From Pseudomonadota bacterium (GTDB taxonomy: Bacteria; SZUA-182; DTGQ01): a stretch of DNA of 64,000 nt. Location: the NCBI GenBank assembly GCA_030625085.1, contig DAOURK010000006.1, positions 4,061 to 68,060 of the forward strand, given 5' to 3'. A program made the translations under genes and the position numbers. The notes under the pieces were generated by a model that was not told where the DNA came from, searched no databases, and was given only the letters and a program-made list of their open reading frames with translations. Positions 37,197 to 56,722 of this stretch are shown here, piece by piece. Position 1 is the stretch's first letter, and each line of letters begins with the position of its first letter.

Positions 37197-37991
37197 GTGC
37201 CTAAGAAGCAATTTTCCGAATATTTAATTCAATCTGTTTTACATGCCTTTGATGTTTTAAATATTTTTATTGTAAGTAATGTAAAAGAACTCGGAGTAAC
37301 GGATCTAAGTAAACGTATGAGATTACCGAAAAATAATGTCTTTCGTCTACTTTCTACTCTTTGTCATCAAGGTTATATTGAACAGAACGTAATGACCGGA
37401 AATTATCGGCTTGGGCTGAAATGTTTTGAGTTGGGGCAAGCTTTCTGGAGAAGAATGGGATTGGTCACCCAGGCTCATGATATTTTGGATTCCTTGGCTC
37501 TTAAAACCCTGGAAACCGTTTATTTATCCGTTTATGATAGTGGAGAAATTATTTATATTGATATGGTAGAAACCCCTCGCCCGGTAAGGATTATACCTAT
37601 GTTAGGGCGAAGAGCCCCCTTGTTTTGTACTTCCGCCGGAAAAGTTCAGGTTGCCTATAGATCGGTAGAAGAAATTCGTAAGTTACTCAAAGATATAGGA
37701 TTGAAACCCTATACAAAAAATACGATTGTTTTAGATGTTGAAATGCTGCAGCATTTGGAAGTGGTGCGGCGGCAAGGCTATGCTTTAGATAAAGAGGAAT
37801 ATGAAGAGGATGTGATATGTCTGGCTGCTCCTATTTATGATTATACGGAAAATGTAGTAGCAGGCATATGTATTTCGGGGCCTATTCAGAGAATGTCTGA
37901 TGAGAGATTAGAGACGGAACTCATTCCCTTAGTCAAAAAGGTGGCAGTGAAAATTTCTCAGCGCTTGGGGTATGGTACAACTCCCGATTAA
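37197..37991 (+). CDS. IclR family transcriptional regulator
   Basis: N-terminal wHTH (LSKRMRLPKNNVFRLLSTL) and an IclR effector domain. GTG start. Confidence 0.8.
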   Translation: MPKKQFSEYLIQSVLHAFDVLNIFIVSNVKELGVTDLSKRMRLPKNNVFRLLSTLCHQGYIEQNVMTGNYRLGLKCFELGQAFWRRMGLVTQAHDILDSLALKTLETVYLSVYDSGEIIYIDMVETPRPVRIIPMLGRRAPLFCTSAGKVQVAYRSVEEIRKLLKDIGLKPYTKNTIVLDVEMLQHLEVVRRQGYALDKEEYEEDVICLAAPIYDYTENVVAGICISGPIQRMSDERLETELIPLVKKVAVKISQRLGYGTTPD

Positions 37992-38256: not shown

Positions 38257-39048
38257 GTGAAAATCGCGGTCACTGGCAAAGGAGGAGTGGGTAAAACAAC
38301 GGTAGCCGCCATTTTAGCCAGGCTCTATTCTCATCAGGGTGATTTTGTGCTGGCAGTTGATGCCGATCCTGACGCAAACCTGGCTTCTGCCATTGGCTTT
38401 TCAGAATTGGAAATTTCAAAAATACAACCTCTCAGCTCTTTGTCTTCTTTTATTGAAGAGCGAACCGGGGCTCGTCCCGGGGCAGGAGGCGGCTTTTTTA
38501 AAATAAACCCTCGGGTTGATGATGTGGTGGATCGTTTTGGTATTCAATTTGAAAATATCCGCTTGATCTCTATTGGTAAACCCAAACCGGGAGGCACTGG
38601 TTGTTATTGTCCGGAAAATGTTTTTATTAAGAGTTTGGTTACCCATCTTATTTTAAAAAAAGATGAGATGTTGATTGTGGACATGGAAGCGGGTATTGAA
38701 CATCTGGGGAGGGGAACGGCGAAAGCGGTAGATGCTCTTTTAATTGTGGTAGAACCGGGAAAAAGGAGCCTTCAGACAGCGAAAGAAATTCGCAAATTAG
38801 CTTTAGATTTAGGGATACTCAGGGTATTTTTAGTGGCCAATAAGCTGCATCATACGCAGGACGAAGATTTTTTCAGAAAAAATTTATCGGATTTTGAGAT
38901 TATTGGTTTTTTACCCTTTGACAAAGCCTTGATTGAAGCGGATACAAACGGACAAGCTCCTTTCCCTACATGCCGGAGGGTGATACAAGAAATAGAAAAA
39001 ATAAAACACTTTTTAGATACAAACTCACAGATGAGTGAAGATAAATAA
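38257..39048 (+). CDS. cooC: CODH nickel-insertion accessory ATPase CooC (MinD/ParA family)
   Basis: GKGGVGKTT Walker A and the CooC-signature GCYCPEN (CxC) motif. Confidence 0.85.
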
Positions 39049-39049
39049 A

Positions 39050-39613
39050 ATGGCTATTGATAAGAAAAAGATAGAAAAAGGGGTCAAGCTGATTTTGGAG
39101 GGCATTGGTATTGAAGATTGGCAAGGGGTACAAAATACGCCCCTTCGGATTGGGGAAATGTATGAAGAAATTTTTGCCGGTTTGAATCAGGATCCTCGAC
39201 AAATTATTTCTCCCATTAAGGGAGAGGAATATGACGAAATGGTACTGGTCCGGGAAATTCCTTTTTATTCAATGTGCGAGCATCATCTTTTGCCTTTTTT
39301 TGGAGAGGCGCATATTGCCTATTTACCTAAAAGGGGAGAAATTGTTGGTGTAAGTAAATTGGCTAAAATTTTAGATGTTTTGGCCAAAAGGCCGCAACTG
39401 CAAGAGCGTTTAACCAAGGAATTGGTTGATATTATTATGGATGGATTGGAGCCGATAGGGGCAATGGTAGTGATTCAGGCTGAGCATTTATGCATGTCCA
39501 TGCGAGGAGTAAAAAAATCTCAGGCTAAAGTAATAACTTCTGCAGTGCGGGGGGCTTTTCGAAGTAATCCAAAAACAAGGATGGAGATGTTGGAATTGAT
39601 TCATAAACGATAA
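39050..39613 (+). CDS. folE: GTP cyclohydrolase I
   Basis: FolE motifs (EMV...[12 protein letters not shown]...VIQAEHLCM). An alternative GTG start exists at 39035. Confidence 0.85.
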
Positions 39614-39656: not shown

Positions 39657-40040
39657 ATGACCGGAAATAGGTATTTTAATAAAGAGCATTTATGGGTTAA
39701 GGTAGACGGGAATGAGGTGACGATTGGACTTAGCGACCATGCCCAGCAAGAACTAGGAGATATTTTATTGGTGGAGCCTTCCGGATTGGACACAGAAATA
39801 GAACAATCGGCTTCTTTTGGTCAGGTCGAATCTGCCAAGGCTGTGTCGGATTTGATATCACCTGTGAGTGGTACTGTTATTGAAGTTAATGAATCATTAG
39901 AGGATGAACCTGAGTTGATTAATGAAGATCCTTATGAAAAGGGATGGATTATCAAATTAGATTTGAAGGATGTCAAGGAATTGGATAATTTAATGGGCGA
40001 AGATGAATATACACGATACCTTCAAGAAGAACTGGATTAA
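39657..40040 (+). CDS. gcvH: Glycine cleavage H-protein-like lipoyl carrier
   Basis: Lipoyl-lysine region SAKAVSDLISPVSGTV and GcvH fold-typical sequence. Confidence 0.8.
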   Translation: MTGNRYFNKEHLWVKVDGNEVTIGLSDHAQQELGDILLVEPSGLDTEIEQSASFGQVESAKAVSDLISPVSGTVIEVNESLEDEPELINEDPYEKGWIIKLDLKDVKELDNLMGEDEYTRYLQEELD

Positions 40041-40042
40041 TA

Positions 40043-40705
40043 ATGATTATTAGTCAACAAAAACCCTTTGAAGAAATTTTGACCATTCTTGGTGAAAAGA
40101 AAAGGGTTTTTCTTATAGGCTGTAGTTTATGCGCCACCCTTTGCCAGAGCGGCGGGGAGGAGCAGGTTATAGAAATGAAGGAGCGCCTTATTGGTGAGGG
40201 TAAGGAGGTTTCCGGGCATGTCGTTATCGAGGCGGTTTGTCATATCTTGAACAGTAAAAAAGAATTAGCCGCTCATAAGGCTGCATTAAAAGAAACCGAT
40301 GCTGTTTTAGTAATGGCTTGTGGGGCAGGCGTGCAAACAGTAACCGAACTAAAGAAAATTCCTGTTATGGCGGCATTGGACACGCTTTTTTTAGGTAATG
40401 TGAAACGCTTTGGCCAATTTGAAGAGCGATGTTCTTTATGTGGTGAATGCATATTAAATAAAACAGGTGGAATTTGTCCGGTGACAACTTGTTCTAAGGG
40501 ATTATTGAATGGTCCTTGTGGGGGAATGCATGATGGTAAATGTGAAATAGATCCGGAGCGTGATTGTGCCTGGGTTAAAATTTACGACCGTTTGGAAGAA
40601 TTGGGTCAACTGGAAACCTTTGAAGAAATTTTTGCACTCAAGGATTATTCAAAAGGAATTAAACCAAAGGCGCTGATATTGGAAAGAGGAAAGAAAGTAC
40701 TATGA
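40043..40705 (+). CDS. metV: Methylene-THF reductase small subunit MetV (zinc-ribbon/FeS)
   Basis: Cys-rich C-terminal half (CSLCGECIL...CP...CGGMHDGKC) resembling MetV of acetogens, immediately upstream of metF. Confidence 0.7.
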   Translation: MIISQQKPFEEILTILGEKKRVFLIGCSLCATLCQSGGEEQVIEMKERLIGEGKEVSGHVVIEAVCHILNSKKELAAHKAALKETDAVLVMACGAGVQTVTELKKIPVMAALDTLFLGNVKRFGQFEERCSLCGECILNKTGGICPVTTCSKGLLNGPCGGMHDGKCEIDPERDCAWVKIYDRLEELGQLETFEEIFALKDYSKGIKPKALILERGKKVL

Positions 40706-41598
40706 ATTTTCAGCAAAGCTTGACCCAAAATCAGTTTACCATTACTACTGAAATTGGTCCGCCAAAGGGTACTGACACCTCGGAAATGCTGGCTCAGGCA
40801 AGTAAAATCAAAGACAGAGTACACGCTATGAATGTTACTGATAATCAAAGTTCCATTATGAGATTAGGTTCTTTGGCTGCTTGTCATTTACTGAAAGAAC
40901 AAGGTATTGATCCAATATATCAATTAACCTGTCGGGATAGGAATCGTCTGGCGCTACAATCCGATTTGTTGAGCGCCAGTGCTTTGGGTCTTAGGAATGT
41001 TCTTGCCTTGACAGGGGATCATCCCCAGGTAGGTGATCACCCTCAAGCCAAACCGGTTTTTGATGTGGATTCAACCCAGCTTTTACAAATCATCGGACGA
41101 CTCAATGAGGGAAGGGACCTTTCCACACAATTTATGAATAAACCCTTGACGGAGGGCACAGCCTTGAAGGGGAAAACAGACCTTTTTCCGGGGGCTGTAG
41201 TTTGCCCTGAGGCAAATCCCATAAAACCGCAATTATTGAGATTTTCCAAGAAAGTTGTCGCCGGGGCAAAATTTTTTCAAACTCAGGCTATCTATGATTT
41301 TGAAAAGTTTGAAAATTTTATGAAATATGCTAGGGACCTGGGCGCCAAGATTTTAGCCGGCATTCTTCTTTTGCGCTCTGCCGGTATGGCTAGATATCTT
41401 AATAAGAATGTTCCGGGAATAATGGTGCCGGACCATCTAATAAAGGAAATGGAATCCTCCGCTCATCCTCTGGAAACAGGGATCAAAATTGCTGCACGTC
41501 AGATCAGCCAATTAAAGGGCATATGTAACGGAGTGCATATTATGGCCATCGGACTGGAGGATAAAGTTTTGGATATTCTTGATGAAGCAGGAATTTAA
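40702..41598 (+). CDS. metF: 5,10-methylenetetrahydrofolate reductase
   Basis: MTHFR TIM-barrel motifs (TCRDRNR...LTGDHP). Confidence 0.85.
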   Translation: MNFQQSLTQNQFTITTEIGPPKGTDTSEMLAQASKIKDRVHAMNVTDNQSSIMRLGSLAACHLLKEQGIDPIYQLTCRDRNRLALQSDLLSASALGLRNVLALTGDHPQVGDHPQAKPVFDVDSTQLLQIIGRLNEGRDLSTQFMNKPLTEGTALKGKTDLFPGAVVCPEANPIKPQLLRFSKKVVAGAKFFQTQAIYDFEKFENFMKYARDLGAKILAGILLLRSAGMARYLNKNVPGIMVPDHLIKEMESSAHPLETGIKIAARQISQLKGICNGVHIMAIGLEDKVLDILDEAGI

Positions 41599-41757
41599 GC
41601 TCAAAAAGCAAGGGTTAGAAATAGATATTTAGATTTGTCAGCGCGGGAAGCGAGCTTTACTTAAAAAACAAGTAGACTTTGTGTTAAAAAAGAGTAAAAT
41701 TGGGTAATAAACCTAACCATGATATACTATTAGCTTCTCTTTAAGGAGGTTGAGAAC

Positions 41758-43032
41758 TTGAACGATCAGGATCAAGCCATTGTTATCGGTGGTGGGATAA
41801 CAGGGGTTACCTCGGCCCTTGCTTTAGCTGATAACGGATATAAGGTTTCTATTATTGAAAAAAGCGCCGGCATTGGTGGGCATGCCATGCAGTTTTGCTG
41901 TAAGGCTACTGATCAGTGTAACAGTTGTGGGGTTTGTCTGGCTAAAGATAAAATCATGAAAGCGGCATCTCATCCAGGCATCCATATTTTAACCAACACA
42001 GAGGTAATAGGAGTAGAAGGAGAAGAGCCTCATTTTCAGGTTGAGGTCTTAAAGACACCACGGTTCATTGATGAATATAAATGTATTGCTTGTTCATTGT
42101 GCTATCAAAATTGTCCCAAACCGGGAGAAGCCATTGACCGTCCTTATTTATATTCTGTGCCGAATGCTTTTTACATTAATAAAGAACACTGTTTATACTT
42201 CCAAAAAGGGGAAGAGTGTACTATTTGTGAAGAAAATTGTCCGGCCGGGGCTATCTTTTTTGATCAACAAGAAGAGCGCCATATATTAAAAGCCTCAGCT
42301 ATAATTGTAGCTACCGGGTTTGAAGTATATGATGCCAGAAAAAAAGGATATCTTGGCTATGGGCGTTTTCCGGAGGTGATTTCAGGGCTTGATCTTGAAC
42401 AAAGATTGTTGATGGGTGAAGATACGATAATTTCCAAATCTTCGCCGGGAGGAAAGCCCCGCGTAGCTTTTATTCAATGTGTCGGCTCTCGAGACCCTCA
42501 TATCAGCCATGACTATTGTTCCCGGGTCTGTTGTAAATATGCGGCGCGGATGGCGGCTAAACTGAAATCGAAATGTGATGAAATAGATCTGACCATTTTT
42601 TATATTGATCTTCAGAAAACGGAAAGAGATTTTTTAGCCTTGGTTGAAAGCTTAAAAGAAAATATTCGGTTGGTTAAGGGACTGCCGGTAAAAATCGAAA
42701 AAGCCGAGGATTCCGGAGTAACAATGCGGTATGAAAATATTGATCGAGGATGTATGGAGAGGGAGTCTTTTGATTTGGTTGTGTTATCAGTAGGAATCAG
42801 TCCCTCTGTCGAAAATCAGTCTTTAGCCGGATTGTTGGGTATAAATATTGACGCGAATGGATTTTTCGCTTCAGTCGATTTAATGGATTCTACCATTAGT
42901 TCTCGGAGAGGAATTTTTCTAGCTGGCACCTGCCAGGGGCCAAAGAATCTTATTGAATCTATTTCCCACGGTCAGGAGGCGGCTTTGAGAACACTTGCTT
43001 TAATGAAGGGGCTAGGTGTAAACAATGGATAA
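41758..43032 (+). CDS. hdrA: HdrA-like flavoprotein (FAD thioredoxin-reductase-like domain with inserted 2x[4Fe-4S] ferredoxin)
   Basis: GGGITG Rossmann motif, CIACSLCYQNCP and CTICEENCP cluster motifs, FIQCVGSRD...YCSRVCC. TTG start with AAGGAGG. Confidence 0.75.
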   Translation: MNDQDQAIVIGGGITGVTSALALADNGYKVSIIEKSAGIGGHAMQFCCKATDQCNSCGVCLAKDKIMKAASHPGIHILTNTEVIGVEGEEPHFQVEVLKTPRFIDEYKCIACSLCYQNCPKPGEAIDRPYLYSVPNAFYINKEHCLYFQKGEECTICEENCPAGAIFFDQQEERHILKASAIIVATGFEVYDARKKGYLGYGRFPEVISGLDLEQRLLMGEDTIISKSSPGGKPRVAFIQCVGSRDPHISHDYCSRVCCKYAARMAAKLKSKCDEIDLTIFYIDLQKTERDFLALVESLKENIRLVKGLPVKIEKAEDSGVTMRYENIDRGCMERESFDLVVLSVGISPSVENQSLAGLLGINIDANGFFASVDLMDSTISSRRGIFLAGTCQGPKNLIESISHGQEAALRTLALMKGLGVNNG

Positions 43033-44737
43033 TCAGGTGAAAATAGGGGTATTCTTCTGTGCGTGCGGCCATATTATGAATGACTATTTTGATATGAAGG
43101 CCTTGCTTGATTATGCCGGTAGAATTCCCGGGGTAACCTATGTTGATGAAAATCGGTTTTTATGTACGAGGAGTGGGTTTGATTGGCTGAAGACTAAGAT
43201 TGCCAACACAGGCTGTAATCGAGTGATTATTGTTGGTTGCTCACCACATCTCTATGAACAAAGCTTTATGAAAGTAGTGGAAGAAGCGGGCCTGAATAAA
43301 TATTTTTTGAGCATAGCCAATATTAGAGAGGGATGTGCCTGGGTGTGCCGGGAAAAGGAAAATCTTATGTCCCGGGCCAGACGGATTATAGCCGCAGCCG
43401 TCCAGCGAGTGAGCTTTGCTAAGCCGGTGGAAAAGGTTCGAAAAAATATAAATAGGTCGGCTTTAGTGATCGGAGCGGGGCTTACCGGTATTCAAACAGC
43501 CCTGGAATTGCAACGGTTAGGGATTAAGCCAATACTCATTGAGAAAAAAACCCAGGTAAGTCGAAAGAACCCCCCCTTCTTTATCCCCTGCATAGAGGGT
43601 ATCAATGAACAAGAGATGTTTTCTGCGAAGATTAAAGAGCTTCGGGATAGTAAAATAGAGCTTTTAACCTCTACAGAAGTGAAGGAAGTGAGAGGAAATG
43701 TTGGGTCATTTCAGGTTACCTTGGATACAATGGGGCAAGAAAAAGCGCTGGAAGTGGGCGCTGTTGTTGTCAGTACGGGGGACCAAAGACAGGCAGCAGA
43801 GAGGATACATAATTTGCCGAATTCCCGCCGGATTGTCAGTTTATCCCAATTACGCAATATGTTTGATTTTGAGAGAAGGACCTTGGAGCGGATGTTGGTT
43901 ACTCCGGATAAACGTACTAAATATGCCTGTTTTATTCTTGGGGATTCTGAAAGTTTTACTAAAACAAATACCATTATGGCCCTTAATGAAGCCATTTTTT
44001 TAAAGGAGCAATTCAAAGCGGAAATTGTGATTGCAGCAAAAGACATAACCGTTTCAGGAACAGAACTGGAGCCTCTTTATCGACAGGCCAGACAAAAGGG
44101 GGTTTTGTTTTATCGGTACTCGCAAGATTCATTGCCGGAAATCAGCCTTGAAAAAGGAGTGATTATCGTTCGCTTGCATGATCCGGCTTTAACGGTGAAC
44201 GATGAAGAGAAGGCCGGTTATAATATTGCTGTTTCAAGTGACCTTCTGATACTTGAGGATGAAATTTTTCCCCATGAAGGGACAGATCGCCTGAAGGATA
44301 TTCTTGATATTAATGTGAATCAATGGGGATTTTTTCAAGAAAAGAATATTCATCTGAAACCGAACCTTTCTAATAAAAAAGGGATTTTTCTGGCCGGTGC
44401 TTGTCATGGGGAAGAGGATATTTACGAAACCCTTAATGATATTTGTTCAGTATCAATGGGGGTTTATTCTTATTTGTCTCAAGAATTTTTGGAGTTAGAG
44501 AAAAAGATAGATATTAATACTGATAAGTGTGTGTTATGTTTGACGTGTTTTCGTTCCTGTCCACACAGGGCAATTGAGATAGGGGATGTAGCTTCGGGCC
44601 AGAAACGAGGTGCAATGGTTAATGTTGAGGCGTGCCAGGGGTGTGGTATTTGTGTTGGAGAATGTCCGGCCAAGGCTATTGAAATGGTAACGTATTCAGA
44701 TAACCAGATTTTTTCCGAATTAACCTTTGAGGGGTAA
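43025..44737 (+). CDS. hdrA: HdrA-like protein (HdrA N-terminal Cys domain + FAD domain + C-terminal 2x[4Fe-4S])
   Basis: IGVFFCACGHI...VGCSPH N-domain, GAGLTG Rossmann motif, C-terminal CVLCLTCFRSCP / CQGCGICVGECP. Overlaps the upstream ORF by 8 nt. Confidence 0.7.
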   Translation: MDNQVKIGVFFCACGHIMNDYFDMKALLDYAGRIPGVTYVDENRFLCTRSGFDWLKTKIANTGCNRVIIVGCSPHLYEQSFMKVVEEAGLNKYFLSIANIREGCAWVCREKENLMSRARRIIAAAVQRVSFAKPVEKVRKNINRSALVIGAGLTGIQTALELQRLGIKPILIEKKTQVSRKNPPFFIPCIEGINEQEMFSAKIKELRDSKIELLTSTEVKEVRGNVGSFQVTLDTMGQEKALEVGAVVVSTGDQRQAAERIHNLPNSRRIVSLSQLRNMFDFERRTLERMLVTPDKRTKYACFILGDSESFTKTNTIMALNEAIFLKEQFKAEIVIAAKDITVSGTELEPLYRQARQKGVLFYRYSQDSLPEISLEKGVIIVRLHDPALTVNDEEKAGYNIAVSSDLLILEDEIFPHEGTDRLKDILDINVNQWGFFQEKNIHLKPNLSNKKGIFLAGACHGEEDIYETLNDICSVSMGVYSYLSQEFLELEKKIDINTDKCVLCLTCFRSCPHRAIEIGDVASGQKRGAMVNVEACQGCGICVGECPAKAIEMVTYSDNQIFSELTFEG

Positions 44738-44741
44738 GAGA

Positions 44742-45155
44742 ATGGATTTTATGCCGGCCATAGTGGCTTTTTGTTGTGAAAATTCAGCTTTTCGGGCCGC
44801 AGATACAGCAGGGGCAAAACAGGAAGGATATCCTTCCAACATTAAGATCTGTCGGCTCCCTTGTTCTGGAAAACTAGAGATAAACTATATCTTAAGGGCT
44901 TTTGAAGAGGGCGCTGATGGAGTGTTTATTTTTGCCTGCCATCCGGACAGTTGTAAGTTTCTCAAAGGTAATGTGCGTGCCCAAAAAAGGGTTGAGCATA
45001 CCGGTGCTTTATTAGAAAAAATCGGCATTAAAAAAGAACGTTTGCGTTTTTTTTATTTGTCCGAATTAGAATGGACAAAATTTTTAGATTTAGTTCAGCA
45101 GGGTAATGAAAGCATTAAGGGCTTGGGGCCCTGTCCGACAAAGGTGAAAGTATGA
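44742..45155 (+). CDS. mvhD: MvhD-like (methyl-viologen-reducing hydrogenase delta subunit family) [2Fe-2S] protein
   Basis: IVAFCCENSA...RLPCSG...CHPDSC motifs. Confidence 0.8.
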   Translation: MDFMPAIVAFCCENSAFRAADTAGAKQEGYPSNIKICRLPCSGKLEINYILRAFEEGADGVFIFACHPDSCKFLKGNVRAQKRVEHTGALLEKIGIKKERLRFFYLSELEWTKFLDLVQQGNESIKGLGPCPTKVKV

Positions 45156-45820
45156 TTATTGCAGAACAAAAAGAAATATCAGAAATTATCAATATGGTTG
45201 GCGATCACCGGAAAATTTTGGTGATTGGGTGTGATACCTGTGTTACAGTCTGTTTGTCCGGAGGCGCTAAGGAAGTGGCCATTTTGGCTTCGGCCCTGCG
45301 CTTGGCTTTCCGAGTGCAGGGTAAGCAGGTGGAGGTTAATGAAACCACCATTGAGAGGCAGTGCGAGATAGAATTTGTGGATTCTTTGGAATCTATGGCA
45401 AAGGACAAAGACCTTTTGATTTCAATGGGTTGCGGGATAGGCGTTCAGACCATAGCCGAGCGTTTTTTTCATTTACCGGTGGTGCCTGCCCTGAACACAA
45501 AATTTTTAGGTCTTCCGGAAAAACAGGGTGTCTGGGTTGAGCGATGTCAGGCCTGTGGCCAATGTGTACTAGATAAAACCGGCGGCATTTGTCCGATTTC
45601 TCGATGCTCAAAAAGTTTGCTCAATGGTCCCTGCGGGGGCTCACAAAACGGTAAGTGTGAAATTAATGATGAAATTGATTGTGCTTGGCACCTGATCTAC
45701 GAACGGTTGAAAGCCCTGAATAGACTTGAATGTTTGGAGGAGATCATGCCTGTAAAAGATTGGTCTACCAGCCGTGACGGCGGACCACGGAAAATGATCA
45801 GGGAGGACATGTGTCTATGA
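45152..45820 (+). CDS. metV: MetV paralogue (second copy)
   Basis: Paralogous to 40043-40705; the C-terminal Cys-rich half is conserved (CQACGQCVL...CGGSQNGKC). Confidence 0.7.
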   Translation: MIIAEQKEISEIINMVGDHRKILVIGCDTCVTVCLSGGAKEVAILASALRLAFRVQGKQVEVNETTIERQCEIEFVDSLESMAKDKDLLISMGCGIGVQTIAERFFHLPVVPALNTKFLGLPEKQGVWVERCQACGQCVLDKTGGICPISRCSKSLLNGPCGGSQNGKCEINDEIDCAWHLIYERLKALNRLECLEEIMPVKDWSTSRDGGPRKMIREDMCL

Positions 45821-46758
45821 AGGTAGGTAGCCGTCTGGAAACATTATTAACTCAAGGAGAATTTGTAGCTACCGCAGAGTTAGGACCGCCAAAGAGCGCT
45901 GATCTTGAATTAATCAAGAAAAAGGCCGCCATTTTACGGGGTTATGCAGATGCGGTGAATATTACCGATAATCAGACTGCCATTGTTAGGGTCTCCAGTA
46001 TTGCCGCAGGTAAAATTAGTTTAGATGAGGGATTGGAGCCGATTATCCAGATGACTTGCCGGGATAGAAACCGGTTGGCCATGCAGGCTGATATCCTTGG
46101 TGCCCATGTTTTTGGTCTCAAAAATTTATTATGCCTCAGTGGAGATCATCAAAGCTTCGGTAATCATCCCCAAGCGAAAAACGTTTATGATCTTGATTCG
46201 ATTCAATTGGCTCAGATGGTTAAGAACATGCGGGATGAAAAGGTATTTCAATGTGGTGATGAGATTAAGAATACGAAAAAATCCGAGGTCATAGAACCGC
46301 GGATGTTTGTGGGGGTAGCGGCCAACCCTTTTGCTGATCCCTTTGAATTTAGAGTGATTCGACTGGCCAAAAAAATTAAGGCTGGTGCGGATTTTGTTCA
46401 GACTCAATGCATTTTTGATCTTCCTAAATTTAAAGAGTGGATGAAGATGGTGGTTGATCGGGGTTTGCACGAGAAGGTTTATCTGTTAGCCGGGGTGATG
46501 CCCGTTAAATCCTATCGAGTGCTTCAATATATGAAAAAAAATGTGGCCGGTATGAGTATCCCCGATGAGCTGATTGACAGAATGAAGGGGGCGGAAGACC
46601 CCAAGGCCGAAGGAGTGAAAATTTGTATAGAGCTGATTCAGCAGGTACGTGAAATTGAAGGTATCCGTGGAGTTCATATTATGGCGGTAGAATGGGAGGC
46701 CATTGTACCTTCAATTGTTCAGGAGGCAGGGCTTTACCCAAGACCTCAGATTCAGTGA
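45811..46758 (+). CDS. metF: Methylenetetrahydrofolate reductase (second copy)
   Basis: MTCRDRNR...LSGDHQ motifs. Confidence 0.85.
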   Translation: MSMKVGSRLETLLTQGEFVATAELGPPKSADLELIKKKAAILRGYADAVNITDNQTAIVRVSSIAAGKISLDEGLEPIIQMTCRDRNRLAMQADILGAHVFGLKNLLCLSGDHQSFGNHPQAKNVYDLDSIQLAQMVKNMRDEKVFQCGDEIKNTKKSEVIEPRMFVGVAANPFADPFEFRVIRLAKKIKAGADFVQTQCIFDLPKFKEWMKMVVDRGLHEKVYLLAGVMPVKSYRVLQYMKKNVAGMSIPDELIDRMKGAEDPKAEGVKICIELIQQVREIEGIRGVHIMAVEWEAIVPSIVQEAGLYPRPQIQ

Positions 46759-50300: not shown

Positions 50301-51839
50301 ACATGTTCTGAAGATACCCAGCAGAAAATGGTGGAGGTCATCAAGGAACATAATTTAAACCGGGTGATTGTTGCCTCCTGTTCTCCCAGGACCCATGAGC
50401 CCCTTTTTCAGGAGACCATTCGTGAAGCGGGTCTTAATCCCTATCTTTTTGAGATGGCCAATATTAGAGATCAATGTTCCTGGGTGCATATGTTTGAAAA
50501 GGAAAAGGCCACGGAAAAGGCCAAGGACCTGGTTCGGATGGCTGTGTATAAAGCGGCCCTGATCGAGCCGCTCCAACGGCTTTCTTTGCCGGTAAATCCG
50601 GCCGGTTTGGTTATTGGGGGAGGCGTAGCCGGCATGATGAGCGCCTTATCCTTAGCTGAACAGGGATTCGATGTCCATCTGGTAGAGAAAGAGTCGCTCC
50701 TTGGTGGGGTGGCCAGAAAGATTTATTATACTCCCGGGGAAAGGGATTTCCCCTCTATCTTGAAATGGATGATTAATCGAATTCAACAACATCCCTTAAT
50801 TCATCTTTATCTGGATTCCGAGGTGGTTGAGGTCTCGGGATTTGTTGGTACTTTTGCCTCGATTATTCGCTCTAAAAAGCGGGAAATTCCCATTGAACAT
50901 GGGGCGATTATAGTAGCTACCGGTGGAGAGGAATCTGTCCCCCAGGAATATTTATATGGACAAAACCCAAAAGTGGTTACTGCACATGATTTAGAATATT
51001 TGATTGCCAAAGAAGATCCCGAGCTTATGAATGCTCAAAACGTGGTTATGATTCAATGCGTCGGTTCTCGGGAAGAAGGGCGGATGTATTGTAGTCGAGT
51101 GTGCTGTATCCAAAGCATAAAGAACGCCCTGCGCTTAAAAGAGATAAATCCTTTGGTTAACATTTATATCCTTTATAGAGATATTCGTACCTATGGATTT
51201 TGGGAAGAATACTATCAGCAGGCCCGTTCAAAGGGAGTTGTTTTTATTCGCTATGATCTAGAGGAAAAGCCCCTTGTCTCCAGCAATGGGTCCGGCACGA
51301 TAGTTATTCAAACGAAAGACCCGATTTTGAATCAACAGGTACTTTTGTCGGCTGATTTTTTGACCTTGGCGCCGGCTATTTTGGCCCCGGAAAGCAATAA
51401 AGATCTGGCCCGGATGTTAAAGGTGCCGGTCAATGAAGATAGATTTTTCCTAGAGGCTCACATGAAATTGCGGCCTGTGGATTTTGCCACTGATGGTATT
51501 TTCGTTTGTGGTCTAGCCCATGCCCCAAAATCGATAGATGAAAGCATTGCTCAGGCTAAGGCAGCCGCAGCCAGGGCCTCTCAAGTTTTAAGTAAGTCTG
51601 CCATTCAGACCCAGGGGCAGACGGCTAAGGTTGATAAAAACCGGTGTGCAGGATGTGGTATTTGTGAGCTGGTTTGTGCCTATAAGGCCATTGAATTGGA
51701 CCTTGAAGAAAAATGCGCCAAGGTAAACGAGGCCCTTTGTAAAGGATGCGGGGCCTGTGCCGCTACCTGTCGTTCAGGGGCGTTAGATGTCAAAGGATTT
51801 ACGAACCAACAGATATTTGAGATGATGGAGGCCTTATGA
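47400..51839 (+). CDS. hdrA: Giant HdrA-family fusion flavoprotein (HdrA FAD/Fd segment, inserted GltD/NfnB-like NAD(P)H-FAD-2x[4Fe-4S] module, rest of HdrA, then a second complete HdrA unit)
   Basis: 1479 aa with three GxGxxG Rossmann motifs (GGGVAG, GSGPAG, GGGVAG), GltD-like CGRICAHPCEEVC, two copies of the IQCVGSR...YCSxVCC inserted-ferredoxin motif, an internal RIGVFVCHCGINI...ASCSPR HdrA N-domain, and C-terminal CAGCGICELVC / CKGCGACAATC. Confidence 0.75.
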   Translation: MAETEGQKKIGAVMVVGGGVAGVQSALDLADSGYKVYIVERGLSIGGVMAQLDKTFPTNDCSMCILAPKLVDTGRHQNIEIITNTEIQSVEGEAGNFRVQLLKHPRFIDETKCNGCGDCEKECPVEVPNEFEQGLSMRKAIYKPFAQAIPNKYSIDKRGKSPCKIACPLGQNAQGYIALIKEKKYAEAYNLIKRDNPIPLVCGRICAHPCEEVCKRGEVDEPMSIAALKRFIADYAYKHDFHVDLEVAEKREERVAIIGSGPAGLVAAHDLALKGYQVTIYEALPVAGGMLAVGIPDYRLPHNLLQYKIDLIKSLGVEIKLNTPIDPHFTCEDLKAEGYKAILLATGAHKSIKLGIAGEGSKGVIHCTDFLREVNLGKKVEVGKRVAVIGGGNTAVDAARVAFRLGAEEIHIVYRRTRLEMPALEDEIEEAEFEGVKILFLTAPVQILAENGRVAGLKCVRMELGEPDDRGRRRPIPIADSEFIIPIDTVIPSVSQAPDLSFLPGDTDLKIGAHDTLDVDPITGATNQEGIFASGEVVTGPWIAVQAMISGREAAISIDRYLNDQDMRKGRDTKKVFEKAEPHKERWNVEIKPRVRMPRLSLEERKGNFKEVDLGLTEEMALEEARRCLNCGICSECMECVTTCKAEAINHDMKEQTLELEVGSVILAPGYEEFDAKLKTNFGYGRYPDVVSSIEFERILSASGPFKGHIIRPSNHQEPKKIAFIQCVGSRDTSCGNDYCSSVCCMYSIKEAVIAKEHLRSIEPTIFYNDMRAYGKDFDKYVNRAEKQYGVRFIKSLVSEVEQDHDSQALGLKYLQEDGQLISEQFDLVILAVGFEPPKDVQEMAKRLHVDLNRYGFCRTETMSPLRTSRAGIYACGAFVSPKDIPETVMQASGAASEASALLSSARNTLITERTYPPERDVSGDTPRIGVFVCHCGINIGGFVNVPEVKDYALTLPFVKYAAENLYTCSEDTQQKMVEVIKEHNLNRVIVASCSPRTHEPLFQETIREAGLNPYLFEMANIRDQCSWVHMFEKEKATEKAKDLVRMAVYKAALIEPLQRLSLPVNPAGLVIGGGVAGMMSALSLAEQGFDVHLVEKESLLGGVARKIYYTPGERDFPSILKWMINRIQQHPLIHLYLDSEVVEVSGFVGTFASIIRSKKREIPIEHGAIIVATGGEESVPQEYLYGQNPKVVTAHDLEYLIAKEDPELMNAQNVVMIQCVGSREEGRMYCSRVCCIQSIKNALRLKEINPLVNIYILYRDIRTYGFWEEYYQQARSKGVVFIRYDLEEKPLVSSNGSGTIVIQTKDPILNQQVLLSADFLTLAPAILAPESNKDLARMLKVPVNEDRFFLEAHMKLRPVDFATDGIFVCGLAHAPKSIDESIAQAKAAAARASQVLSKSAIQTQGQTAKVDKNRCAGCGICELVCAYKAIELDLEEKCAKVNEALCKGCGACAATCRSGALDVKGFTNQQIFEMMEAL

Positions 51840-52324
51840 GTGTAGAGAAAAAAAAGAGTCAACAGCAATCCTGGGAACCGAAAATTGTGGCCTTCCTTTG
51901 TAATTGGTGCAGCTATGCGGGAGCTGACCTGGCCGGCATTAGTAGAATTCAATATCCTCCTAATGTCCGTGTTATTCGGGTCCCGTGCTCCGGCAGGATC
52001 AATCCGGTTTTTATTTTGAAGGCATTGCAGAGTGGAACTGACGCTGTTTTAGTATCAGGCTGTCATCCGGGAGATTGTCATTACGTAAGCGGCAATTATT
52101 ATGCTCGAAGAAAATTTGAGATTTTTGACCATTTGCTGGATTTTGTGGGGTTGGAAAAGGGAAGGGTCTTTTTTTCCTGGGTTTCGGCTGCAGAGGGAGA
52201 AAATTTCGGCCATTTAATTAAGCATGTTGTGGATGAGGTAAAGAAACTGGGACCTGCTCATAAATTAGTGAAAACCATTGAAGGGCCAGTAGCCAATTGT
52301 CAGCAAACAATGGTCGAAGGGTAA
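51836..52324 (+). CDS. mvhD: MvhD-like / FlxD-like protein
   Basis: IVAFLCNWCSYAG...VPCSG...CHPGDC motifs. ATGA start/stop overlap with the upstream gene. Confidence 0.8.
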   Translation: MSVEKKKSQQQSWEPKIVAFLCNWCSYAGADLAGISRIQYPPNVRVIRVPCSGRINPVFILKALQSGTDAVLVSGCHPGDCHYVSGNYYARRKFEIFDHLLDFVGLEKGRVFFSWVSAAEGENFGHLIKHVVDEVKKLGPAHKLVKTIEGPVANCQQTMVEG

Positions 52325-52377: not shown

Positions 52378-53337
52378 ATGTGGTCAAAGGAAATAACTCA
52401 GAAGATCCGAGCCACTGCGGAATCTTTGCTACTCGAAGGAAAGGTTGACCTCATTATCGGCTATGAGGCAGGCAGCACTCCTTTACGAACAGCTCCTTCT
52501 TTTGTGCGATCAGCGGAGCAGGCTTCTTTGTTGGTTTGGAACCCTTTTTGTGAGAATAACCTCAGTGTTTATTTAGAAGGGAGAAAAGAGAAGGTAGGTC
52601 TGATGGCTAAAGGCTGTGATGCCAGAGCCGCAGTGGTTGCTTTACAGGAAAAACGTATTGATCGAGACCGATTGCTAATTATTGGTCTTCCGTGCTCCGG
52701 AGTTGTTGATCGACAAAAATTAGCCGCCTCGGTAAATATTGATGCTGTTAAGGCTTTTTCGGTTGATAAGGATTCACTCGTGCTTCAGACAGAAGAAGAA
52801 GTACGGCTACCTTTAGAGGATGTTTTGCATGCTTCCTGTAAGACTTGTTCGCGAAGAAACGCTCCGGTGTCGGATATTTTTATTGGTGAAAAAAGCTCTG
52901 AGCCTCAGGTCAAGGACGAGTTTGCAGAGGTAAAATCTTTCGAGGGTTTGGGCACTCAGGAGCGGTGGCGCTATTTTCGTGAATTGGCCCAAAAATGTAT
53001 TCGCTGTTACGCTTGCCGAAATGCCTGTCCTTTATGTTATTGTCAGGAATGTATTGTTGACCAGACACAACCACAGTGGTTCGGGAAGACTGCTGCTGAA
53101 GAAGATACATTAATTTATCATATTATACGTGCTTACCATTGTGCGGGAAGGTGTATTGATTGCGGTGCCTGCTCTAGGGCCTGTCCTATGGGTATTGATT
53201 TAAGACTTTTAAACAAAAAACTTCAAAAGGACGTGCAGGAGCTTTATCACTATATTCCCGGATTAAATCCGGATGAAGCGCCAGCCTTTGGTACGTTTAA
53301 GCTTGATGATCCGCAGGATTGTATCACGGAAAAATAA
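52378..53337 (+). CDS. Iron-sulfur oxidoreductase subunit (HydB/AsrA-like; FlxC-like)
   Basis: AKGCDARAA motif and a C-terminal 2x[4Fe-4S] (CIRCYACRNACP...CIDCGACSRACP). Confidence 0.55.
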   Translation: MWSKEITQKIRATAESLLLEGKVDLIIGYEAGSTPLRTAPSFVRSAEQASLLVWNPFCENNLSVYLEGRKEKVGLMAKGCDARAAVVALQEKRIDRDRLLIIGLPCSGVVDRQKLAASVNIDAVKAFSVDKDSLVLQTEEEVRLPLEDVLHASCKTCSRRNAPVSDIFIGEKSSEPQVKDEFAEVKSFEGLGTQERWRYFRELAQKCIRCYACRNACPLCYCQECIVDQTQPQWFGKTAAEEDTLIYHIIRAYHCAGRCIDCGACSRACPMGIDLRLLNKKLQKDVQELYHYIPGLNPDEAPAFGTFKLDDPQDCITEK

Positions 53338-53385: not shown

Positions 53386-54396
53386 ATGGATACAGGGATT
53401 ATAAAGAAGGAAAATATCAAAGGTGTTATCGAGAGCTTGATGCAAATGGGAAAGGTGGTGGCCCCGACTCGGCAAGATGATATGACTGTGTTTTCGGCTT
53501 TACCCTCCAGTGAGGCCTTAGATCTTAATTATACCAATAGCAAATTAAGCCCTAAGGATTATTTTTTTCCTCAAACCGAGGTGCTTTTTTGTTACGAAAA
53601 AGAAAATAATCAAATTCATCCACCGCTCATTGAAGACAAGCCCGCTTGCCTGGTGGGAGTTCGTCCCTGCGATGCTAAGGCTATAACTTTATTGGATTGT
53701 ATTTTCAATGATCCGCAGTATAAGGATGTCTATTATCTCAACAAGCGCAAAAACACTGTGGTGATTGGTCTTGCCTGTACGAATCCCCAAAGCACCTGTT
53801 TTTGTACCTCCACGGGAGGAGGCCCATTGGATACTACCGGTATGGATATGCTTTGGCAAGATCTTGGTGATAGATATCTGATCAAAGCAGTAACTCCTCA
53901 GGGAAAAGAATTGGCCTCTAAGCTTTTCGGTATTGATAAGGCACCGGAAAAGGACCTTTCTTACGCCAAGAAGCAGGGCGAGAAGGTCCTGTCGATGATT
54001 CCACCGGCCTTTGAGGCAGAAAAGATTTCTGAGAAATTACGTTCCTCATTTGAGGATTCTGTCTGGGAAACAATTCATGAAAAATGTTTAGGGTGCGCGG
54101 CCTGTACCTTTGTTTGCCCTACTTGTCATTGCTTCGATATACAGGATGAAAACAGCCGGGACCGGGGGAGACGAGTGAAGTTGTGGGACTCTTGTATGTT
54201 TCCCCTCTTTACACTTCATACATCAGGACATAATCCCAGGTTATCGGGTAAAGAACGTATGCGGCAAAGAATTATGCACAAATTTAATTATTTTAAGGTT
54301 AATAACGGACACGTTGCCTGTGTCGGCTGCGGAAGATGTATCAGGGAATGTCCGGTCAATATGGATATTAGACAGATAGTATCGGCGTTTAGTTGA
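53386..54396 (+). CDS. Iron-sulfur oxidoreductase subunit (sulfhydrogenase beta / AsrA-like; FlxB-like)
   Basis: VGVRPCDAKA motif, CLGCAACTFVCPTCHC and CVGCGRCIRECP clusters. Confidence 0.6.
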   Translation: MDTGIIKKENIKGVIESLMQMGKVVAPTRQDDMTVFSALPSSEALDLNYTNSKLSPKDYFFPQTEVLFCYEKENNQIHPPLIEDKPACLVGVRPCDAKAITLLDCIFNDPQYKDVYYLNKRKNTVVIGLACTNPQSTCFCTSTGGGPLDTTGMDMLWQDLGDRYLIKAVTPQGKELASKLFGIDKAPEKDLSYAKKQGEKVLSMIPPAFEAEKISEKLRSSFEDSVWETIHEKCLGCAACTFVCPTCHCFDIQDENSRDRGRRVKLWDSCMFPLFTLHTSGHNPRLSGKERMRQRIMHKFNYFKVNNGHVACVGCGRCIRECPVNMDIRQIVSAFS

Positions 54397-54407
54397 GGAA
54401 AGAGAAA

Positions 54408-55247
54408 ATGGAGAATCCCTATTTACCAAAAAATGTAAAGATAGAAAAAATTATTGATGAGACAGCGGGAAAGGATATTAAAAGTTTTGTCTTATCCTTT
54501 CTGAATCCTCAAGATTGCGAAGCTTTTTCGTATCATCCAGGTCAGTTTGCCGAAATTTCCATTGCCGGGGCCGGAGAAATTCCTATTGGTATTGCTTCAT
54601 CTCCTTCCGAGGGAGTAGAAGTGAAATTTACGGTAAAAAAAATGGGGGTGGTAACGAAAGACCTTCATAATTCTTCCGCCGGGCGGATTATTGGTTTGCG
54701 AGGACCTTACGGAAATGGTTTTCCCATGGAAGAGCTAAAGGGTAAAAATATTGTCATTGTAGGGGGAGGGTTTGCTTTTACTACCTTGCGATCTTTGGCT
54801 GTGTATTTGATGGATGATTCCCGCAGGAAGGATTACGGGGATATTACTATTATCTGTGGGGCCAGGACCCCGGGTGATCTTATTTATCGTCAAGAAGTGG
54901 AAACTTGGGCTTCCCAGCCTGATTTAAAGGTCCAGGTGACCGTTGATAAGGGAAATGCGGATTGGAGTGGGAGAGAGGGTTTTATTCCGCCTGTGGTCAA
55001 GGAAGTGGCTCCTTCTGCGGATAATGCCATAGCCTTGGTTTGCGGCCCTCCGATAATGATTAAACTTACCATTCCTATTCTTTTTGATCTGGGCTTTGCG
55101 CCCAACAAAATTTTGAATTCACTAGAGATGAGAATGAAATGTGGATTTGGTAAATGTGGCCGCTGTAACATCGGAAATAAATATGTTTGCAAAGATGGGC
55201 CGGTTTTTACCTTTGAGGAACTACAAAAACTCCCTCAAGAATATTAA
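54408..55247 (+). CDS. FAD/NAD(P)-binding oxidoreductase with C-terminal [2Fe-2S] (HydG/AsrB/PyrK-like; FlxA-like)
   Basis: Ferredoxin-NADP reductase-type fold motifs and C-terminal CGFGKCGRC. An alternative TTG start at 54393 overlaps the upstream stop. Confidence 0.65.
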   Translation: MENPYLPKNVKIEKIIDETAGKDIKSFVLSFLNPQDCEAFSYHPGQFAEISIAGAGEIPIGIASSPSEGVEVKFTVKKMGVVTKDLHNSSAGRIIGLRGPYGNGFPMEELKGKNIVIVGGGFAFTTLRSLAVYLMDDSRRKDYGDITIICGARTPGDLIYRQEVETWASQPDLKVQVTVDKGNADWSGREGFIPPVVKEVAPSADNAIALVCGPPIMIKLTIPILFDLGFAPNKILNSLEMRMKCGFGKCGRCNIGNKYVCKDGPVFTFEELQKLPQEY

Positions 55248-55321: not shown

Positions 55322-56722
55322 ATGAGCGATTATGACATTGGCATTATCGGGGCCGGGCCGGGTGGTTATGTGGCAGCGATCAGAGCATCTCAACTGGGGG
55401 CTCGGGTTTGTTTAATTGAACGGTCAGAGGTAGGCGGGACATGCTTGAATCTTGGCTGTATTCCGACCAAAGCCCTGGTTGGCTGTGTAAGTGCGCTCTC
55501 CAATATAAAATCGGCAGAAGAATTCGGCATTCAAATCAAAGATATCTCCTTTGATTTTAAAAAGATGATGGAGCGCAAAGACAGAATTGTTGAACGCTTG
55601 ACTAAAGGGATTAGACAACTACTGAAAAGCTATCAAATTGATCTGATGTGGGGCAAAGCCGGGATTCGAACACCGAATATTATCGAAGTTACGACTCGTG
55701 ATAATGGCAAGATGGAGAAGGTGAGCGTGGAAAAGATTATTATTGCTACCGGCTCCAGACCTGCCAAAATACCGGTTTTTGAAATCGACGGAAAGAGAGC
55801 AATTACCAGCGATGAAGCCTTGTCCTTGGAGGAGGTCCCTGAACGGCTCCTGATTGTGGGTGGAGGTGTGGTTGGTTGCGAATTTGCCTGTATTTTTAAT
55901 GCCTTGGGGAGCAAAGTTACCATTGTCGAGGTCATGCCGGACCTGATTCAGTTGCAGGATAAGCAGATTAGCCGGCAATTGCGGGTACTGTTAAAAAAAG
56001 CAGGCATTACCATTTTAACCAATGAAACCATTTGTCAGGTAAGAAAAGGCTCTGAGGAAATAGAAGTCGAATTGGAGTCTGAAAAAACGCTCCAGGCGGA
56101 CAAAATGTTGGTTTCCATTGGGCGAGTATTTAATTCAGATAATCTCGGGTTGGCGGAGGTTGGGGTGAAAACTTCCAAGGGAATGATTTTAGTAGACAAT
56201 AGAATGCGGACCTCTGTGGAAGGCATTTACGCCATCGGTGATGTGGCCAGTCATCTTCGATTGGCTTATATAGCTTCGGCACAAGGGATTGTGGCGGCTA
56301 CGAATTGTCTGGGCAAGCGAAAAACTATGGATTATGGAACTGTGCCTACCTGTATTTTTACTATGCCGGAGATTGCCTCTGTAGGCCTGACGGAAGCGCA
56401 GGCCAGAGAAGAAGGATATGATGTAGGGGTCGGCAAATTTCCTTTTTCAGCCAGTGGAAAAGCCTTGGCTATGGGAGAAACCGATAGTTTTCTCAAAATG
56501 ATTGCCGACAATGATGAGGAGACTGTGCTGGGGGTACATATCATAGGCCCCCACGCCACAGATATTATTCATGAAGCTGCTTTGGCCATTCGGATGGGTG
56601 TCAGGGTCCGGCAATTGGCTGATACGCTACATGCTCACCCGACCTTATCCGAGGTATTGGTTGAGGCGGCTGAAGACGTCAAGGGAACATCAATTCATCT
56701 TCCAAAGAAAAAAAAGGATTAG
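55322..56722 (+). CDS. lpdA: Dihydrolipoyl dehydrogenase
   Basis: GAGPGGY...GGTCLNLGCIPTK redox-active disulfide, NAD Rossmann motif, C-terminal dimerisation HAHPTLSE. Confidence 0.9.
   Translation: MSDYDIGIIGAGPGGYVAAIRASQLGARVCLIERSEVGGTCLNLGCIPTKALVGCVSALSNIKSAEEFGIQIKDISFDFKKMMERKDRIVERLTKGIRQLLKSYQIDLMWGKAGIRTPNIIEVTTRDNGKMEKVSVEKIIIATGSRPAKIPVFEIDGKRAITSDEALSLEEVPERLLIVGGGVVGCEFACIFNALGSKVTIVEVMPDLIQLQDKQISRQLRVLLKKAGITILTNETICQVRKGSEEIEVELESEKTLQADKMLVSIGRVFNSDNLGLAEVGVKTSKGMILVDNRMRTSVEGIYAIGDVASHLRLAYIASAQGIVAATNCLGKRKTMDYGTVPTCIFTMPEIASVGLTEAQAREEGYDVGVGKFPFSASGKALAMGETDSFLKMIADNDEETVLGVHIIGPHATDIIHEAALAIRMGVRVRQLADTLHAHPTLSEVLVEAAEDVKGTSIHLPKKKKD

Follow-up and report, generated by a model that had tools for sequence, protein, structure and literature searches.

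The 64,000-nucleotide (nt) stretch analyzed here, called the window throughout, belongs to contig DAOURK010000006.1 of a Pseudomonadota bacterium and carries a Wood-Ljungdahl gene cluster that spans 37.2-64 kb, all on the + strand, from an IclR-family regulator gene through the start of acsB. This cluster contains two intact MetV-MetF pairs, each predicted to form a methylene-tetrahydrofolate (methylene-THF) reductase (MTHFR). From the list of open reading frames (ORFs) and from Pfam matches, we placed module 1 (MetV1-MetF1) at 40043-41598 and module 2 (MetV2-MetF2) at 45152-46758. The cluster as a whole reads IclR-CooC1-FolE-GcvH-MetV1-MetF1-HdrAa-HdrAb-MvhD1-MetV2-MetF2-HdrC-like-HdrL-MvhD2-three Flx-like genes-Lpd-CooC2-AcsE-AcsD-AcsC-AcsA-AcsB (start). 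The same tandem of modules 1 and 2, preceded by IclR, CooC, FolE, and GcvH, is present in five other assemblies (loci L002, L006/L007, L008, and L016).

An earlier note, made from the sequence alone, had described the two modules as paralogous but diverged, with conserved C-terminal and different N-terminal halves of MetV, and both statements were borne out. In pairwise BLASTP comparisons, MetV1 and MetV2 share 44% identity (E 6e-61) and MetF1 and MetF2 share 40% (E 8e-79). The C-terminal halves of the MetV proteins are 54% identical, versus 30% for the N-terminal halves (residues 1-109), which nevertheless can be aligned and keep the CG.GVQ motif and their cysteines (C27, C30, and C93 invariant, C34 nearly so). 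The NGPCGG motif and 11 invariant cysteines are found in MetV of both clades defined below, and the C-terminal tail of MetV2, SRDGGPRK..RED, is clade specific. Among 102 aligned MetF sequences, residues equivalent to Glu28, Asp120, Gln183, and His273 occur in both copies and are invariant in the 36 to 37 members of each clade; this numbering follows E. coli MetF and is approximate. MetV1/MetF1 and MetV2/MetF2 are joined by ATGA overlaps. For MetF2, the ORF list gives a GTG start at 45811, but the ATG at 45817 (313 amino acids [aa], ATGA overlap with the MetV2 stop) matches a 100%-identical database homologue and is most likely the true start. A search of the PDB returned no solved MetV structure and, for MetF, only distant structures of the E. 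coli/Thermus type.

Compared with four relatives, nonsynonymous divergence (dN) was 0.12 to 0.26 for MetVF1 and 0.08 to 0.13 for MetVF2, with synonymous sites saturated, so that MetVF1 evolves about 1.5 to 2 times faster than MetVF2. The low dN at saturated synonymous sites indicates purifying selection on both modules, with module 2 the more constrained. The note had named two outcomes that would speak against its view, near-identical copies and an inactivated copy, and neither was found. A recent duplication or an assembly artefact is ruled out by the 40 to 44% identity, by closer relatives in other phyla, and by the tandem in five other assemblies; an inactivated copy is ruled out by the intact catalytic and cysteine residues and the low dN. 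Homologues of MetF1 at 58 to 67% identity are labeled Desantisbacteria, Firestonebacteria, Actinomycetota, Deltaproteobacteria, and Nitrospirae, and those of MetF2 at 64 to 75% identity come from Poribacteria, Lindowbacteria, Abyssobacteria, Hydrogenedentota, Planctomycetota, Latescibacteria, and others. These cross-phylum identities (58 to 75%) clearly exceed the 40% that the two copies share, which points to an old pairing of two lineages rather than to a lineage-specific duplication. Judged by sequence, MetVF1 and MetVF2 are true but diverged paralogues from anciently separated lineages. The phylogeny that the note had called for agrees: in a neighbor-joining tree, MetF1 falls in one clade (clade 1) and MetF2 in another (clade 2), with exact-clade bootstrap recovery of 33/100 and 53/100, respectively.

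The two clades keep different genomic company outside the window lineage. MetF1-type genes were found in three contexts: as MetV-MetF-ThyX within an actinobacterial acs cluster or alone on a delta-proteobacterial contig; as MetF without MetV behind fab-rnc-radical S-adenosylmethionine (SAM) genes; and in Clostridium-type clusters with the order MetV-MetF-Lpd-CooC-AcsD-AcsC-AcsE...GcvH. The nearest out-of-lineage relatives of MetF1 (64 to 67% identity) are MetF-only genes in the fab-rnc-radical SAM context or MetVF-ThyX. MetF2-type genes were found as HdrC-HdrB-HdrA (1022 aa)-MvhD-FolD-MetV-MetF in Poribacteria, as MetV-MetF-HdrC-HdrL (1482 aa)-MvhD-Flx-like in Latescibacteria (L015), and as MetV-MetF alone in Hydrogenedentota. 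Among lone-MetF loci with enough flanking sequence, Hdr or MvhD genes lay within 6 kb of MetF in 4 of 7 clade 2 loci versus 0 of 22 clade 1 loci (Fisher p = 0.0015). In about half of the 80 metagenome loci with a MetV1-like protein, MetV has no MetF of the acetogen type beside it (among them L035, L049, L050, L068, L083, L093, and L094); a recurrent order there is UvrD helicase-MetV-like protein (217 aa, PF12225)-NifU/IscU-5-formyl-THF cyclo-ligase-RNase Y (e.g., L049:7912-13241). The presence of MetV homologues where MetF is missing hints at a function outside MTHFR.

According to the earlier note, each module had its own HdrA/MvhD partner; here our comparison led to a different assignment. 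HdrAa-HdrAb-MvhD1-MetV2-MetF2 is contiguous in L002, L003, L006, L008, and L016. L003 and L004 carry HdrAa-HdrAb-MvhD1 (L004 is cut within HdrAb), and L003 goes on with MetV2-MetF2-HdrC-HdrL-MvhD2-Flx. Upstream of HdrAa, these two loci have genes for a multihaem cytochrome (1178 aa), a cytochrome b, and NHL-repeat proteins, not GcvH-MetVF1, and a perfect TTGACA-17-TATAAT promoter-like site precedes HdrAa (L003:8700-8989 and L004:8700-8989). In L008 (16377-19133) and L016 (16561-18339), the place directly after MetF2, which HdrC-HdrL occupy in the window, is taken by inserted toxin-antitoxin genes (RelB-like, ParE, PhdYeFM/PIN) and a gene of the PLD/restriction type; the downstream edge of MetF2 is thus a recombination-prone break point of the cluster. 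Since L003/L004 differ upstream and L008/L016 downstream, the invariant block is HdrAa-HdrAb-MvhD1-MetV2-MetF2. As in the type IV/6S gene arrangement, metV-metF adjoins hdrA and mvhD, overlapping or contiguous, in all relatives. ATGA overlaps also join MvhD1 to MetV2 and HdrL to MvhD2. The coupling of MvhD1 to MetV2, the architecture of L003/L004, the HdrA-MvhD-MetV-MetF order of Moorella, and the clade counts together argue that the split HdrA with MvhD1 and HdrL with MvhD2 both belong with module 2, rather than one set with each module.

Downstream of module 2, the note had read an HdrC, a giant HdrA, and an Flx-like module, and the domain matches agree, with an HdrC-like protein, a 1479-aa HdrA (HdrL), MvhD2, and three Flx-like genes. 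HdrAa matches solved HdrA (8rvv/5odc) over residues ∼140-565 (E 1e-72), and HdrAb matches it over 11-243 and 319-649. HdrAa aligns to residues 25-170 and 636-889 of HdrL and HdrAb to 928-1473; joined end to end, the two cover HdrL except for its GltD/NfnB-like NAD(P)H insert (∼150-660 of HdrL). HdrL is an HdrA whose flavin domain is split by this NAD(P)H module and which is fused to a second HdrA; it scores 532.6 with the NAD(P)-binding model PRK12771 (cut-off, 516) at residues 149-662 and 1038 with the HdrA2 model. The HdrA of Poribacteria (1022 aa) corresponds to the fused form without the insert. The cluster therefore holds two paralogous double-HdrA units, the first split and devoid of the NAD(P)H insert, the second fused and carrying it, each followed by MvhD. 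A frameshift artefact is ruled out as the cause of the split HdrA, since every relative has this pair of overlapping ORFs. The best NCBIfam matches of the HdrC-like protein are HdrC and the QmoC N terminus, both below cut-off (94.5 bits versus 160). The Flx-like set matches the domain content of FlxABCD (an FlxA-like protein, two Fe-S proteins, and an MvhD-like FlxD) in the reversed order D-C-B-A, a resemblance only.

Table 1. Features of the Wood-Ljungdahl cluster in the window
Feature	Position	Strand	Matches and remarks
IclR-family regulator, head of cluster	37197..37991	+	PF01614, PF09339; 73-76% conserved, same place in L002, L006, L008, L016
CooC-like P-loop ATPase (Ni-insertion type), copy 1	38257..39048	+	PF01656 CbiA/ParA family; syntenic in relatives
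FolE, GTP cyclohydrolase I (pterin/folate synthesis)	39035..39613	+	PF01227 E 1e-65; TIGR00063 206.6 (cut-off 181.6)
GcvH, canonical lipoyl H protein	39657..40040	+	PF01597 E 6.5e-43; NF002270 149.9 (cut-off 117); TIGR00527 135.1 (cut-off 115.85)
MetV1, Fe-S/Zn subunit of module 1	40043..40705	+	PF12225 E 6e-37, 125.7 bits (cut-off 23)
MetF1, catalytic subunit of module 1	40702..41598	+	PF02219 E 3e-43, 148.5 bits (Pfam gathering cut-off 24); clade 1
MetF1-HdrAa gap, 159 nt	41599..41757	.	Possible operon boundary
HdrAa: HdrA flavin (thioredoxin-reductase-like) and inserted ferredoxin domain only, 424 aa	41758..43032	+	
HdrAb: HdrA N-terminal, flavin, and C-terminal ferredoxin domains, 570 aa	43025..44737	+	
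MvhD1	44727..45155	+	PF02662 E 5e-41; stop overlaps MetV2 start
MetV2, Fe-S/Zn subunit of module 2	45152..45820	+	PF12225 E 1e-38, 131.3 bits (cut-off 23)
MetF2, catalytic subunit of module 2	45817..46758	+	PF02219 E 3e-41, 142.2 bits (cut-off 24); clade 2
HdrC-like di-cluster ferredoxin, 165 aa	46895..47392	+	PF13183, PF13534
HdrL-type giant HdrA, 1479 aa	47400..51839	+	Pfam domains; PRK12771; HdrA2 model
MvhD2 (FlxD-like)	51836..52324	+	PF02662 E 7e-53; ATGA overlap with HdrL
FrhB/FdhB-like Fe-S protein (FlxC-like)	52378..53337	+	PF04432 and Fer4 domains
HydB/AsrA-like Fe-S protein (FlxB-like)	53386..54396	+	PF17179; sulfhydrogenase beta/AsrA model matches below cut-off
FlxA/HydG/AsrB-like NAD(P)H-FAD-[2Fe-2S] protein	54393..55247	+	PF00175, PF10418; HydG/AsrB-like in NCBIfam
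Lpd, dihydrolipoyl dehydrogenase	55322..56722	+	TIGR01350 565.7 (cut-off 408.8); PF07992, PF02852
CooC2, AcsE, AcsD, AcsC, AcsA (carbon monoxide dehydrogenase), AcsB start: carbonyl branch	56729..64000	+	Pfam

FolD lies between FolE and GcvH in L006/L007 (7945-8793), L008 (8073-8921), and L016 (7960-8808), not in L002 or in the window, so it must be encoded elsewhere in the window genome. A scan of the window for glycine, THF, and SAM riboswitches found none; the only Rfam matches at gathering score were three tRNAs. Our terminator and promoter scan for operon limits was uninformative, with counts no higher than in shuffled sequence, and aligning the MetF1-HdrAa spacer across relatives revealed nothing conserved except the ribosome-binding site. 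In L008, this spacer (10907-11065) is full of short direct repeats (GATCAGTGGTCAGTGGCCAGTGG... and AACTGATAACTGAAAACTGATAAC), unlike that of the window. A replication-origin neighborhood occupies window positions 8348-21435, with gyrA, gyrB, and dnaA on the - strand and then yidC, mnmE, parA, and parB on the + strand. Cumulative GC skew reaches its minimum, and GC dips to 0.30, at ∼14-16 kb. The Wood-Ljungdahl cluster begins about 23 kb away and is co-oriented with replication. Elsewhere in the window, a 387-aa ORF without Pfam match (29589-30752, + strand) is flanked by genes for a DUF4412 protein and a nicotinate phosphoribosyltransferase-like protein.

The explanation that we favor, and that we hold to be slightly on the probable side, is that the cluster encodes two non-redundant MTHFRs, module 2 working in an HdrB-less Hdr/HdrL/Flx-type bifurcating or confurcating system and module 1 as a separate two-subunit reductase associated with folate and one-carbon (C1) genes. 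Module 2 would be the folate-reducing end of a flavin-based electron-bifurcating or -confurcating system of the Hdr type. In its core, HdrAa-HdrAb-MvhD1-MetV2-MetF2, the double HdrA of the Moorella type would be divided over two genes; HdrC, the NAD(P)H-binding HdrL, MvhD2, and an Flx-like NAD(P)H:Fe-S module would extend this core downstream. Such a system would connect NAD(P)H, a low-potential carrier (ferredoxin, for example), and the methylene-/methyl-THF couple. This would make reductive running cheap or, in the oxidative direction, methyl-THF oxidation feasible. Module 1 would be a plain enzyme of two subunits from the lineage to which the reduced-ferredoxin-dependent MetVF of the Clostridium type belongs, and would make no use of Hdr proteins; it would be expressed with GcvH and FolE (and with FolD in relatives) for folate and C1 metabolism around the methylene-THF node. 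For MetFV of the 2S type, the passages on electron donors in PMC8515935 and PMC8760232 give reduced ferredoxin, not NAD(P)H, as the donor. The composition of the complexes, their donors, their direction, and bifurcation are what we infer here from genes and their neighbors.

Several observations weigh against this explanation. Exact recovery of the two clades in bootstrap replicates is modest, as a few deep, unstable sequences move, and the reference loci of the Clostridium type with which MetF1 groups (clade 1 recovery, 33/100) were recognized by gene order only. The Moorella complex has HdrB; in the window, cluster proteins gave no Pfam match to its CCG domain, and tblastn with three HdrB sequences was empty across the 64 kb. 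In T. phaeum, hdrA lies at metVF and hdrBC elsewhere in the genome (PMC6895022), and HdrB of the window genome may likewise be encoded elsewhere. As to whether module 1 has a dedicated NAD(P)H- or Hdr-type subunit, the comparative data put the Hdr genes with module 2, yet HdrAa begins only 159 nt after MetF1. This gap holds no terminator-like site on the + strand and only a weak promoter-like site (41673-41700), and it shrinks to ∼5-14 nt in L002, making one transcript for all genes possible. Lastly, two-set clusters recur in another lineage. L017:166-10454, L057:11-10791, L067:60-12861, and L091 combine clade 1 and clade 2 MetVF with a double HdrA, MvhD, and HdrC/HdrB (fused in L057), with a histidine kinase (HK) and response regulators (RR) between the sets. 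In L017 the order is interleaved (MetV1-HdrA-MvhD-MetV2-HK-MetF2-RR-RR-MetF1), and both MetVF could work with Hdr. L057 also encodes an extra short MetV-like protein at 10306-10791.

These two-set loci bear on another reading, in which an asymmetric HdrAa/HdrAb pair replaces the HdrA homodimer at the center of a single supercomplex, a different MetVF sits on each arm, and gene order mirrors assembly. The order MetVF1-HdrAa-HdrAb-MvhD1-MetVF2 is indeed symmetric and tightly packed, above all in L002; the combination recurs in the distant group just described, and the same arrangement has been published for the Chloroflexi genome DscP3 (PMC5736913). However, L003 and L004 keep HdrAa-HdrAb-MvhD1 (with MetVF2 in L003) where no MetVF1 adjoins, lone clade 1 MetVF never has Hdr neighbors, two high-potential acceptors of the same kind bring no obvious gain to a bifurcating enzyme, and the kinase and response regulators that separate the sets in the distant group speak for regulation, not co-assembly. 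We therefore regard the supercomplex as improbable.

It is likewise unlikely, in our estimate, that the modules are direction- or condition-specific isoenzymes (reductive versus oxidative, or anabolic versus catabolic) that perform the same chemistry and are switched by regulation. The nearest out-of-lineage relatives of MetF1, either MetF-only in housekeeping contexts or MetVF-ThyX, would fit such a division, as would FolE (and FolD in relatives) ahead of module 1, the IclR regulator heading the cluster, the two-component systems between the sets in Chloroflexi-like loci (PMC5736913), and the faster evolution of MetVF1. However, both modules seem to share a single uninterrupted operon in which no clear terminator was seen, and the clade 1 type is the catabolic enzyme in Clostridia, as described in the parts of PMC8515935 concerned with that enzyme. 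Moreover, this reading overlaps with the one that we favor rather than excluding it.

The note had further proposed that the two reductases use different electron donors, possibly a lipoyl-protein/Lpd route for module 1 and an NAD(P)H-Flx/Hdr route for module 2. The general proposal stands in part, since two intact modules in different genomic company make different redox partners plausible. For the lipoyl route, the GcvH-MetV1 junction reported in the note was confirmed as TAA-TA-ATG, with 2 nt between stop and start, and GcvH passes NCBIfam thresholds. Its motif VESAKAVSD is present, and we take the lipoyl-lysine to lie within it. The spacing is 1 to 3 nt in five relatives (L002, L006, L008, L009, and L016), where MetF1 identity goes down to 67%. 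The coupling is real and, because none of the 80 metagenome loci has GcvH directly upstream of MetV, specific to the window lineage.

A lipoylated GcvH, recycled by Lpd with NADH, might be imagined as donor or co-acceptor of MetVF1, with module 2 served by the NAD(P)H/Hdr-Flx route. A canonical GcvH and a canonical Lpd are both in the cluster, and a Pfam scan of window ORFs no shorter than 150 aa revealed neither GcvT nor GcvP. Clostridium-type clusters with clade 1 MetVF also have lpdA and gcvH (a linkage noted as well in PMC8515935, where it treats gene clusters), and, by the potentials discussed in PMC8760232, the lipoyl couple is at a more negative potential than that of methylene-THF. However, Lpd lies 14 kb downstream of GcvH in the window, behind the Flx-like genes; GcvH-MetV adjacency is absent from the metagenome loci; and shared use of methylene-THF accounts for the linkage equally well. 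The lipoyl-GcvH/Lpd scheme had already been proposed and was judged highly unlikely in the discussion of donors by Oppinger et al. (PMC8760232), partly because lpdA and gcvH also accompany RnfC2-type MTHFRs. In the experiments on C. ljungdahlii MetFV described in PMC8515935, NADH plus dihydrolipoamide dehydrogenase (DLDH) and lipoamide did not bring about methylene-THF reduction, whether ferredoxin was present or not, and DLDH did not copurify. The donors named where PMC8515935 and PMC8760232 describe such tests include free lipoamide, with no mention there of protein-bound lipoyl-GcvH. The lipoyl-GcvH donor is thus weakened rather than excluded by the negative result with free lipoamide, and we consider it quite unlikely. 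A bolder proposal, that the conserved coupling of GcvH to MetV1 marks a true redox partnership in which protein-bound dihydrolipoyl-GcvH recycled by Lpd is the missing physiological donor or bifurcation partner of two-subunit MetVF in general, or, as a variant, that the asymmetric HdrAa/HdrAb core joins the two MetVF modules in one machine, is very unlikely.

The electron donor of MetVF-type MTHFRs, and energy conservation at that step, is presented as a long-standing question about the Wood-Ljungdahl pathway in those sections of PMC8760232 that deal with it. Plain MetVF and Hdr-embedded MetVF side by side offer a compact gene set for asking whether the two types differ in donor. The locus also poses the questions of whether an HdrB-less Hdr/HdrL/Flx assembly can bifurcate onto methylene-THF and whether lipoyl-GcvH has any redox role. 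As every component is of a familiar kind and dual sets have a published precedent, the gain is incremental; it would be greater if the lipoyl-GcvH or dual-arm reading were true.

The closest precedent is the marine Chloroflexi genome DscP3, in which two non-identical metVF sets with ∼41-43% similarity, one Moorella-like and one A. woodii/Clostridium-like, lie in an hdrABC-mvhD-metVF cluster and a two-component system flanks metF_1 (Sewell et al. 2017, PMC5736913). Loci L017, L057, L067, and L091 repeat the DscP3 pattern exactly, the HdrC-HdrB fusion included. The window likewise has two diverged metV-metF sets in one Hdr-containing Wood-Ljungdahl locus. In DscP3, however, HdrB is fused to HdrC, the double HdrA is fused as well, a two-component system lies between the sets, and GcvH, HdrL, and Flx-like genes are absent; in the 64 kb of the window, HdrB is missing, HdrA is split, HdrL comes with an Flx-like module, and GcvH is coupled to MetV1. 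The two lineages are unrelated: GyrB of the window is only ∼61% identical to that of the nearest named groups, Nitrospirota or Binatia, and 74-97% identical only to those of metagenome-assembled genomes labeled "bacterium." In 'Ca. Syntrophonatronum acetioxidans', a syntrophic acetate oxidizer, there are also two metF copies, one with MvhD/Hdr-like genes in the acs operon, and its authors infer different redox coupling; there the copies are on different contigs, the second by a NiFe hydrogenase, whereas those of the window are in tandem in one cluster (PMC6295475).

Each module also resembles a biochemically studied system. MetF2 groups with Hdr-linked MetF genes, and module 2 resembles the MetFV-HdrABC-MvhD complex of Moorella thermoacetica (type IV/6S; Mock et al. 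2014, as cited in the overviews of MTHFR types in PMC8760232 and PMC8515935) in gene order and architecture, with the HdrA-MvhD-MetV-MetF order, a double HdrA, and an HdrC-like protein. Compared with the Moorella complex as outlined there, the window lacks HdrB, has HdrA in two genes and HdrC downstream, and adds HdrL, which binds NAD(P)H, together with MvhD2 and Flx-like proteins. MetVF1 falls in the MetF clade with Clostridium-type loci and, with GcvH and Lpd in the cluster, recalls C. ljungdahlii-type MetFV (type II/2S), as portrayed in the relevant parts of PMC8515935 and PMC8760232. In the clostridial clusters depicted there, lpdA follows metF and gcvH is at the far end; in the window, GcvH is immediately upstream of MetV1 and Lpd is distant. 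HdrL resembles the HdrL of Desulfobacterium autotrophicum, a giant fusion of HdrA and a glutamate-synthase-like protein followed by MvhD (PMC2702500). The Flx-like genes resemble, by domain content, FlxABCD-HdrABC of Desulfovibrio vulgaris (Ramos et al. 2015, as cited in the passage of PMC9430772 on this system), with MvhD, two Fe-S proteins, and an NAD(P)H-FAD-[2Fe-2S] protein. In the window, which has no HdrB, and in the Latescibacteria locus L015, HdrL and the Flx-like genes are joined directly to MetVF, not to DsrABC or HdrABC. Altogether, the dual metVF pattern in an Hdr cluster is already known; what is new in the window is the split HdrA without HdrB, the added HdrL and Flx-like genes, and the GcvH gene coupled to MetV1.

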